44,678 nt of DNA, from positions 1-44,678 of the forward strand of contig CAYYUI010000040.1 of assembly GCA_964474705.1 (NCBI GenBank). The letters run 5' to 3'. Source of the DNA: an uncultured bacterium (GTDB lineage Bacteria; Muiribacteriota; Ozemobacteria; Ozemobacterales; Ozemobacteraceae). The notes beneath the pieces were generated by a model. The model was not told the origin of the DNA. It ran no database searches and saw nothing but the letters and a program-made list of their open reading frames with translations. Shown in pieces: positions 25,667-25,980 of this stretch (positions are counted from its first letter, which is position 1; every line of letters begins with the position of its first letter). The translations under genes were made by a program, and so were the position numbers.

Positions 25667-25980
25667 GGCAAACGGATACTTTTCAAAGTTGTGAAACGTG
25701 TAAAGCAGGTCAGTCATTGCAACGCTCTGCAATCCTCGCGCTCTCCTAATCTCATCTGTTCGCTCTGCTCGCACGACCGGCACACGGGCTCTAAGCCTCA
25801 TCCTGCGGCAATCGCCCGCGTTTTGCCTTCCGGGCAAAACGTCCGGTCTTAGCGGCATCGCTTTCAGGTGATTATGGAGCGCTCGATAAGCGACGCTTGT
25901 GCAATCGCCTGACCTGCCATAAACCAGAATAGAGATACAATAAAGTAAGCGTTTGCCTTTTGCTCTATAATAAGGGAATG
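25667..25980 (-). repeat. copy B of the roughly 310 bp conserved intergenic element
   Basis: Reverse complement is about 85% identical to 2281-2590, with the same hairpins and a 5 nt indel. Confidence 0.6.

Follow-up and report, generated by a model that had tools for sequence, protein, structure and literature searches.

A short conserved open reading frame in Candidatus Riflebacteria is probably a by-product of a fold-back mobile repeat

The contig CAYYUI010000040.1 of an uncultured Ozemobacteraceae bacterium, analyzed here over its 44,678 nt (the window), carries two copies, A and B, of an element in which the same short open reading frame (ORF) has been preserved with mostly silent differences (copy A, 2397..2555, + strand; copy B, 25622..25858, - strand). 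The comparison of these copies with related sequences indicates, with a probability that we place at roughly 0.8, that the ORF is a by-product of a fold-back mobile repeat, and that the conservation of the region it occupies, the tip of a long hairpin, is mainly due to constraint on the nucleic acid. With 85% identity over an alignment of 254 nt, copies A and B are the sole representatives in the window of a repeat family of ~298 bp. This family is a fold-back miniature inverted-repeat transposable element (MITE), that is, a non-autonomous transposable element, of Candidatus Riflebacteria, an assignment based on its terminal inverted repeats (TIRs), its target-site duplications, the many dispersed copies, the lack of an internal transposase and the existence of an empty site.

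After removal of duplicates, at least 58 distinct copies of the family were collected from Riflebacteria metagenome-assembled genomes (MAGs) and metagenomes. Searching species-representative genomes with a 24-nt core pattern returned 23 loci, all of them in Candidatus Riflebacteria, Rifleibacterium or Ozemobacteraceae MAGs, with at least nine loci in DAOPYA01, six in CALEDQ01 and four in CAZFUG01. A second pattern, picked outside the ORF block, returned 38 metagenome loci, and in many metagenome loci the contig ends fall inside the repeat. No copy was detected among viral contigs, and an nhmmer search of the fetched loci yielded no more-divergent copies beyond those already known. Basic copies span 296-299 bp and reach up to 396 bp once the modules described below have been inserted. 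The element contains no transposase gene, and none of its frames matched any predicted protein in a six-frame search against 5.8 billion proteins. Likewise, an Rfam scan at gathering thresholds assigned no family to it, and a literature search revealed no account of MITEs with CsrA motifs or of Riflebacteria repeats.

Full-length copies start with CAGGGCAAACG and end with CGTTTGCCCTG, defining TIRs of 11 bp that are perfect in copy A and in many others. Adjoining these ends are direct repeats of 9-10 bp, with CCATGCCGGT, GATATGTTGA, GCTATATTAT and TTATTTTGCC as instances at other copies. The flanking repeats are perfect (9/9) in five of 13 copies and match at 8/9 positions in two more; among 156 mismatched flank pairs used as a control, none reached nine matches and four reached eight. 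Additional perfect duplications turned up among the newly found metagenome copies. In the window, copy A (2295..2593, + strand) is a complete element of 299 bp, from TIR to TIR, that scores 317.7 bits against the family profile in nhmmer. Its left TIR CAGGGCAAACG (2295..2305, + strand) starts with CAGGG, like ISAs1-family ends, and its right TIR CGTTTGCCCTG occupies 2583..2593 (+ strand); the 10-bp target-site duplication GTCTATTGAC flanks the element as a perfect direct repeat at 2285..2294 and 2594..2603. Copy B (25664..25960, - strand) spans 297 bp, belongs to a divergent subfamily and has the termini AAAGGCAAACG...CGTTTGCCGGG.

The insertion of copy B can be traced in a related locus, L063, which encodes a DUF819 protein 96% identical to that of the window and in which 180 nt separate the same two genes without any copy of the element. 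The intergenic DNA of this locus keeps the same terminator and promoter, and presents a single GTACAAAGCAAA where the window has TATAGAGCAAA and TATGAGCAAA. Since it lacks the element and holds one copy of the duplicated target, this locus represents the empty site of copy B, and the comparison delimits an imperfect left target-site duplication, TATAGAGCAAA (25959..25969, - strand), and a right one, TATGAGCAAA (25654..25663, - strand). In another close relative, copy A is found at the same position, on a contig that breaks at the hairpin tip. A further locus (L052:6048-6343) combines the left flank of the copy at L056:7649-7944 with the right flank of the copy at L004:4607-4902, mixed flanks that could result either from recombination between two copies or from a chimeric metagenome assembly.

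Copy A occupies exactly the interval between two promoters arranged back to back, both of them outside the element and pointing away from it: a divergent TTGCCT-17-TATAGT promoter for a ferredoxin/flavodoxin gene (2251..2279, - strand), and a TTGACA-17-TATAAT promoter with 12/12 matches for a leader and an ABC-transporter operon (2599..2627, + strand), the -35 box of which (TTGACA) is overlapped by the right target-site duplication. Copy B lies between the intrinsic terminator of the upstream gene (25994..26022, - strand; a 12-bp stem followed by T8), directly before it, and the TTTGCA-17-TATAAT promoter of the DUF819 gene (25621..25649, - strand), directly after it, which is kept in orthologous loci without the element. 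In the family as a whole, outward -10-like hexamers concentrate at 32-47 nt from either end (17 in 50 right flanks, 11 in 35 left flanks). The element is therefore inserted into, or tolerated in, the DNA that immediately precedes -35 boxes, frequently between divergent promoters and in either orientation. No orientation bias toward downstream promoters was apparent, outward -10 boxes being present near both ends, and the variable subterminal segments were discarded as insertion-site guides, cognate and non-cognate alignments having equal scores.

Published descriptions of the ISAs1 family give ends starting with CAGGG and direct repeats of 10 bp as its signature. The ends described here share the CAGGG start, and their 9-10 bp duplications fall inside the 8-10 bp of ISAs1 descriptions; the E. 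coli yhhI element, of ISAs1 type, has the ends CAGGGAAAGA...TTGCCCTG. The element thus has ISAs1-type ends, and its putative partner, acting in trans, would be a DDE transposase of the ISAs1 family. Several negative results count against this partner. The ~560 kb of fetched Riflebacteria DNA contained neither a full-length insertion sequence (IS) or autonomous ISAs1-type element with matching ends nor an ISAs1 transposase, and a tblastn search with E. coli YhhI produced no match in the fetched loci. TIR-like sites outside the known copies, considered as traces of a parent IS, look like chance occurrences and never pair around a gene. The fold-back MITE has thus inserted into promoter-upstream DNA, with the ORF placed across its tip, and in the scheme that we propose an ISAs1-family transposase acting in trans would have moved it there.

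Each copy of the family folds into a single long imperfect hairpin of ~300 nt with a Y-shaped tip, its two arms being paired from end to end. On both strands the fold greatly exceeds shuffled sequence in stability, with z-scores between -5 and -11 (z = -9.9 for copy A and -5.3 for copy B). Eight compensatory pairs were identified among 16 copies, and the set of 58 copies shows 18 compensatory events, of which 12 fall in the core. The 32 codons shared by both window copies span the tip of this hairpin and cover two smaller hairpins with GGA in their loops. In copy A, tip hairpin 1 (CGTTTTGCC-TGGAG-GGCAAAACG; 2414..2436, + strand) corresponds to consensus positions 118-140, and tip hairpin 2 (GTCGC-AGGAT-GCGAC; 2446..2460, + strand) presents a CAGGAUG loop motif and includes the compensatory pair 155:167. 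Their counterparts in copy B are CGTTTTGCC-CGGAA-GGCAAAACG (25819..25841, - strand) and GCCGC-AGGAT-GAGGC, with one G.A mismatch (25795..25809, - strand). The initial annotation had proposed the GTCGC/GCGAC hairpin as the source of a coincidental codon pattern; the T-A to C-G compensatory pair on which this idea relied is real, and the second change in the hairpin creates the G.A mismatch instead.

The interior of the element is its most conserved part. The central 215 nt show 94-98% identity between copies, beyond that of the subterminal DNA and beyond that of the TIRs; in copy A, the conserved core extends over 2337..2550 (+ strand), is 88% shared with copy B and corresponds to the inverted-repeat pair I1. 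Pairwise identity among all copies reaches 97.5% in the tip, 94-95% in the arms, 83-85% in the TIRs and 68-70% in the subterminal 30 nt on each side, and the respective values within one MAG are 99.7%, about 98%, 83-93% and 78%. In copies with decayed or replaced ends, such as L013, L020, L022 and L012, the core still retains 96-99% identity to the consensus. Among copies with perfect target duplications, the subterminal DNA differs by 10-43% and the core by only 0.5-2.3% (winA excepted, at 7.9%). Since perfect target duplications denote young insertions, the core must have been conserved along transposing lineages. Conservation of the core at the nucleotide level, combined with compensatory pairing, points to constraint on the folded single strand, and we infer that it is in this form, and not as a peptide, that the element core is constrained. 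Two peculiarities of the tip deserve mention. In the copy at L041:2060-2227 the tip is missing (profile positions 116-167) through an in-frame deletion that leaves MPLRPRVPVVRAE, a configuration that shows the arms to be able to persist without the two tip hairpins. In addition, tip hairpin 1 (CGTTTTGCC-TGGAG-GGCAAAACG) resembles a right and a left TIR abutted to each other (CGTTTGCCCTG followed directly by CAGGGCAAACG), as if the junction of a circle or tandem had been copied into the interior.

In RNA form, the consensus tip hairpins read UUUUGCC-UGGAG-GGCAAAA and GCCGC-AGGAU-GCGGC. The repeat consensus of the CsrB RNA is CAGGAUG and CAGGACG, and the two tip loops, 28 nt apart, would be compatible with a single CsrA dimer. 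Extra modules of ~48 nt, inserted after ...GC(G/T)TT at four distinct positions spread over both arms, are present in the copies at L001:2034-2429, L003:4530-4935, L014:3975-4330, L018:4880-5240 and L020:5250-5590. These modules fold as twin hairpins with loops AGGA(C/G/A) and (C)AGGAU, as in UUUGCC-AGGAC-GGCA UUAU GCCGC GUGA GCC-AGGAU-GGC GGAA GCGGC, and their GGA is always on one strand; one module has an unlike sequence and the same twin-hairpin design. The five expanded copies present 5-8 unpaired GGA on the ORF-sense strand versus 0-1 unpaired TCC, and the basic element presents two unpaired GGA. The ORF-sense strand is also the more stable one in 24 of 25 copies, by a mean of 9.4 kcal/mol. 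Against the Rfam Bacillaceae-1 covariance model (RF01690), copy A matches at 2418..2482 on the - strand, opposite to the ORF, with 35.4 bits, and four other copies score 36.6 (three copies) and 34.4 bits (one copy), the gathering score being 35; the default gathering scan did not report Bacillaceae-1. With scores of 34.4-36.6 versus 35 bits, the likeness is borderline, and would amount to a resemblance short of homology. Gardner and Eldai described a match between the reverse complement of Bacillaceae-1 and the CsrA-binding motif, and considered the strand of this family uncertain. The Csr/Rsm models in Rfam gave no match to the element.

The alternative that the ORF encodes a functional product must be weighed against this structural evidence. 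According to this explanation, translation of the 32 codons would yield a small arginine-rich peptide (MPLRPDVLPGGQNAGDCRRMRLRARVPVVRAE), and purifying selection on it would add to the conservation of the tip. The observation behind it stands: both window copies share their first 32 codons, MPLRPDVLPG(G/R)QNAGDCRRMRLRARVPVVRAE, from an ATG in one frame, and differ over them by exactly seven nucleotides, of which four are silent changes (CCT/CCC, TGT/TGC, GTT/GTG, CGT/CGA), two make up the CGA/AGG Arg to Arg change and one, GGG/AGG (Gly to Arg), is the sole non-synonymous change. The limits given for the 78-aa copy B ORF (25858-25622, - strand) are exact, as is the end of the copy A ORF (52 codons plus stop) at 2555, but its start was misplaced at 2398, the ATG being at 2397-2399. 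The reported lack of a Shine-Dalgarno sequence holds as well, with CCCTGCAAGCG-ATG in the window and CCCTGCAAACG-ATG in the family. The claim that a 5-nt indel keeps the upstream part from coding in both copies does not: the copies are of equal length between the anchors GGCAAACGCTTACTTTATT and GCGATTGCA, and upstream the shared frame is uninterrupted in either copy. Across the family, the consensus ORF comprises exactly 32 codons and ends in a TGA that both window copies lack. All 41 copies spanning the block retain the ATG, and 23 of them have the exact 32-aa ORF. Four further results favor a peptide and weigh against a mere by-product. Distinct variants among the 58 copies are 14 synonymous to 12 non-synonymous, with 27% synonymous expected (P = 0.004, or 0.03 considering six frames); without the two window copies the ratio is 12:11 (P = 0.012); in pairwise comparisons, third codon positions diverge by 4.0% and the other two by 0.9% (~4-fold); and a 48-nt tip insert, found in four copies, is in frame and free of stops. 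The synonymous excess seen in the initial pair extends to the larger set of homologs, but is not significant among variants absent from both window copies (8:11, P = 0.18), which shows the synonymous signal to be weak and partly an effect of the selection of the pair. By site count, periodicity is marginal (12/32 third positions vary versus 12/64 first and second positions). Moreover, synonymous sites are ~8x more conserved than subterminal DNA (divergence of 4.0% versus 31%), so that selection on a peptide cannot explain the conservation and most of the constraint must act on nucleotides, and the core arms outside the ORF are nearly as conserved as the ORF itself (94-95% identity). Frame-breaking indels inside the block, named in the initial annotation as a sign against a peptide, do occur in some copies: one has a 1-nt deletion and two have frame-shifting inserts, which together with a copy lacking 19 codons amounts to 4/41 copies, and the frameshifted variants comprise L006 and two 65-aa variants. 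Of 56 copies, 12 no longer have a stop at codon 33 (it is substituted in 10 and deleted in two), both window copies among them, and radical substitutions are present (G to W in three copies, M to K in five, L to Q, R to G). The ORF lacks a Shine-Dalgarno sequence whereas neighboring genes carry one, its ATG pairs with its stop inside the very stable helix of a hairpin of ~-155 kcal/mol (consensus fold), the six frames of both copies had no match among the 5.8 billion predicted proteins, and the window copies sit in DNA that is probably untranscribed. We therefore consider the peptide highly improbable, and of the two readings left open in the initial annotation, where the membership of both copies in a mobile repeat family had gone unnoticed, structural constraint with a coincidental codon pattern is the one that is retained.

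If the ORF is a by-product of the repeat, the conservation of the core calls for an explanation of its own, and three were considered. The likeliest of them, though tentative, is that the core serves as an RNA scaffold, specific to one strand, on which CsrA-type GGA hairpins are displayed, a proposal suggested by the location of all unpaired GGA on the ORF-sense strand, by the extra twin-GGA modules and by the reverse-complement match to Bacillaceae-1 at the tip. The main argument against it is that many copies, both window copies included, lie where transcription is not to be expected: copy A has no sigma-70-like promoter and copy B only one weak, unconserved outward match (9/12), the window copies lie upstream of promoters or right after a terminator, where no transcript is expected, and nearly half of all copies are ~40 nt upstream of outward -10 boxes. 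In addition, one-sided changes yielding G.U versus A.C (31:21) are not significantly biased, and csrA was not seen in the sampled loci, which cover a few percent of each genome. A sigma-54 promoter in GGTCAGGCGATTGCA, spotted by eye, was rejected; its spacing fits most copies and is off by one in copy A, and the start would lose the left arm. An extended version, in which the transposable element would have acquired or evolved a protein-binding RNA scaffold related to Bacillaceae-1/TwoAYGGAY that grows by twin-hairpin modules, with transposition setting the dosage and position of decoys for a global regulator, strikes us as rather unlikely. Almost as likely, and equally tentative, is that the core is selfish cis-acting DNA devoid of RNA or host function, its fold-back and TIR-like tip being needed for transposition. 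The core would then, for example, bring the ends together or bind the transposase, and only lineages with an intact core would keep jumping. The conservation of the core in young copies with perfect duplications despite subterminal divergence, the resemblance of tip hairpin 1 to abutted TIRs and the location of copies in untranscribed promoter-upstream DNA are all in line with such a role, but, as the main argument against a double-stranded DNA role, a double-stranded or cruciform function would not predict that unpaired GGA, including those of modules in both arms, should be on one strand, and the tip is more conserved than the TIRs and the core is kept in copies with decayed or replaced ends. 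Finally, the identity of the core might not reflect selection at all, but gene conversion between dispersed copies, which would act most strongly in the middle of the homologous stretch, conversion from arm to arm within the palindrome, or else a very recent spread. Identity does climb from the edge to the center (69%, 94%, 97.5%), the tip is 99.7% identical within a MAG versus 97.5% between MAGs, and the mixed flanks of L052, taken from L056 on the left and L004 on the right, could be a trace of recombination if they are not an assembly chimera. Nevertheless, conservation is higher in the TIRs, at the extreme edge, than in the adjoining subterminal DNA, the core persists in different MAGs and in subfamilies whose ends differ, and modules of unlike sequence retain the same twin-hairpin GGA design, and we regard this last explanation as unlikely.

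The regions adjacent to the two copies present additional features. Downstream of copy A, the promoter at 2599-2627 is followed by a Shine-Dalgarno sequence and a 17-codon ORF, MINAFFYRPASIGANSL (2666-2719), and then by a terminator-like hairpin with a T-run (~2736-2775) ahead of two ABC exporter genes (2813-6483); judging from this arrangement, the 2599-2790 region looks like a leader-peptide attenuator. An exact-protein look-up of the neighboring ABC transporter returned no record. Orthologs of the genes around the copies confirm a Rifleibacterium-like source for the window. The genes next to copy B (21821-25550) encode a DUF819 protein, an SH3/NlpC-P60 peptidase and an MR/MLE-type epimerase, are co-directional in all Riflebacteria orthologous loci and probably form a murein-peptide recycling operon. 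Upstream of the DUF819 promoter, one Rifleibacterium MAG carries a ccdA/ccdB toxin-antitoxin pair (L065:1581-2140), and this intergenic spot appears to be a hotspot for inserted DNA. Elsewhere in the window, a 57-nt inverted repeat pair (30278-30334 and 43647-43703) has arms that are 91% complementary and 13 kb apart. Each arm contains a promoter-like TTGAC...TAGAGT stretch and then GTTCGACGRCCCGGCATATCAGCCG, with a T-run following in the first arm, and the pair may mark a small RNA gene or else belong to a different repeat family.

The family described here provides a first mobile repeat family, with ISAs1-type ends, for an uncultivated phylum. For annotation purposes, the ORF and its look-alikes should not be called genes, and the repeat, which breaks metagenome assemblies, should be masked as a MITE. 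The element is odd in that its interior is more conserved than the ends expected to bind the transposase, and in that it displays GGA hairpins on one strand in numbers that vary between copies. Should the core turn out to be an RNA of the CsrA-binding type, MITEs would become connected with global regulation at the post-transcriptional level, and the orphan Bacillaceae-1 motif would acquire a function and a strand.

With respect to known systems, the element shares with ISAs1 ISs and DDE-derived MITEs its small size, multiple copies and lack of a transposase, as well as the CAGGG start, the 9-10 bp duplication and yhhI-like ends. It differs from them in its TIR, of 11 bp here versus the 14-22 bp quoted for the ISAs1 family, and in its interior, which is a conserved full-length fold-back and not a deleted IS interior. 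Repeats of the ERIC/Correia type are likewise imperfect, intergenic, multi-copy palindromes of 100-300 bp that form long hairpins, have a conserved center and produce size variants through internal insertions at fixed sites. They belong, however, to another phylum and have another sequence and other ends, with a TA duplication in place of the 9-10 bp observed here, and are not known to have a counterpart to the twin GGA-loop hairpins. Those hairpins are closer to the CsrB and RsmX-Y-Z small RNAs, in which hairpins with CAGGAUG or CAGGACG loops are also repeated and the number of units varies, as do the 2 to 8 unpaired GGA of the element. Unlike these RNAs, the element has no promoter or terminator of its own, and consists of a rod-like fold-back body that is mobile and present in many genomic copies. 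Bacillaceae-1 and TwoAYGGAY, which are candidate CsrA-binding RNAs, resemble the tip in having two adjacent hairpins with AGGAU and UGGAG loops on one strand, but Bacillaceae-1 is a free-standing motif of ~67 nt in Bacillaceae, and the structure described here caps a mobile hairpin of 298 bp found in Riflebacteria.

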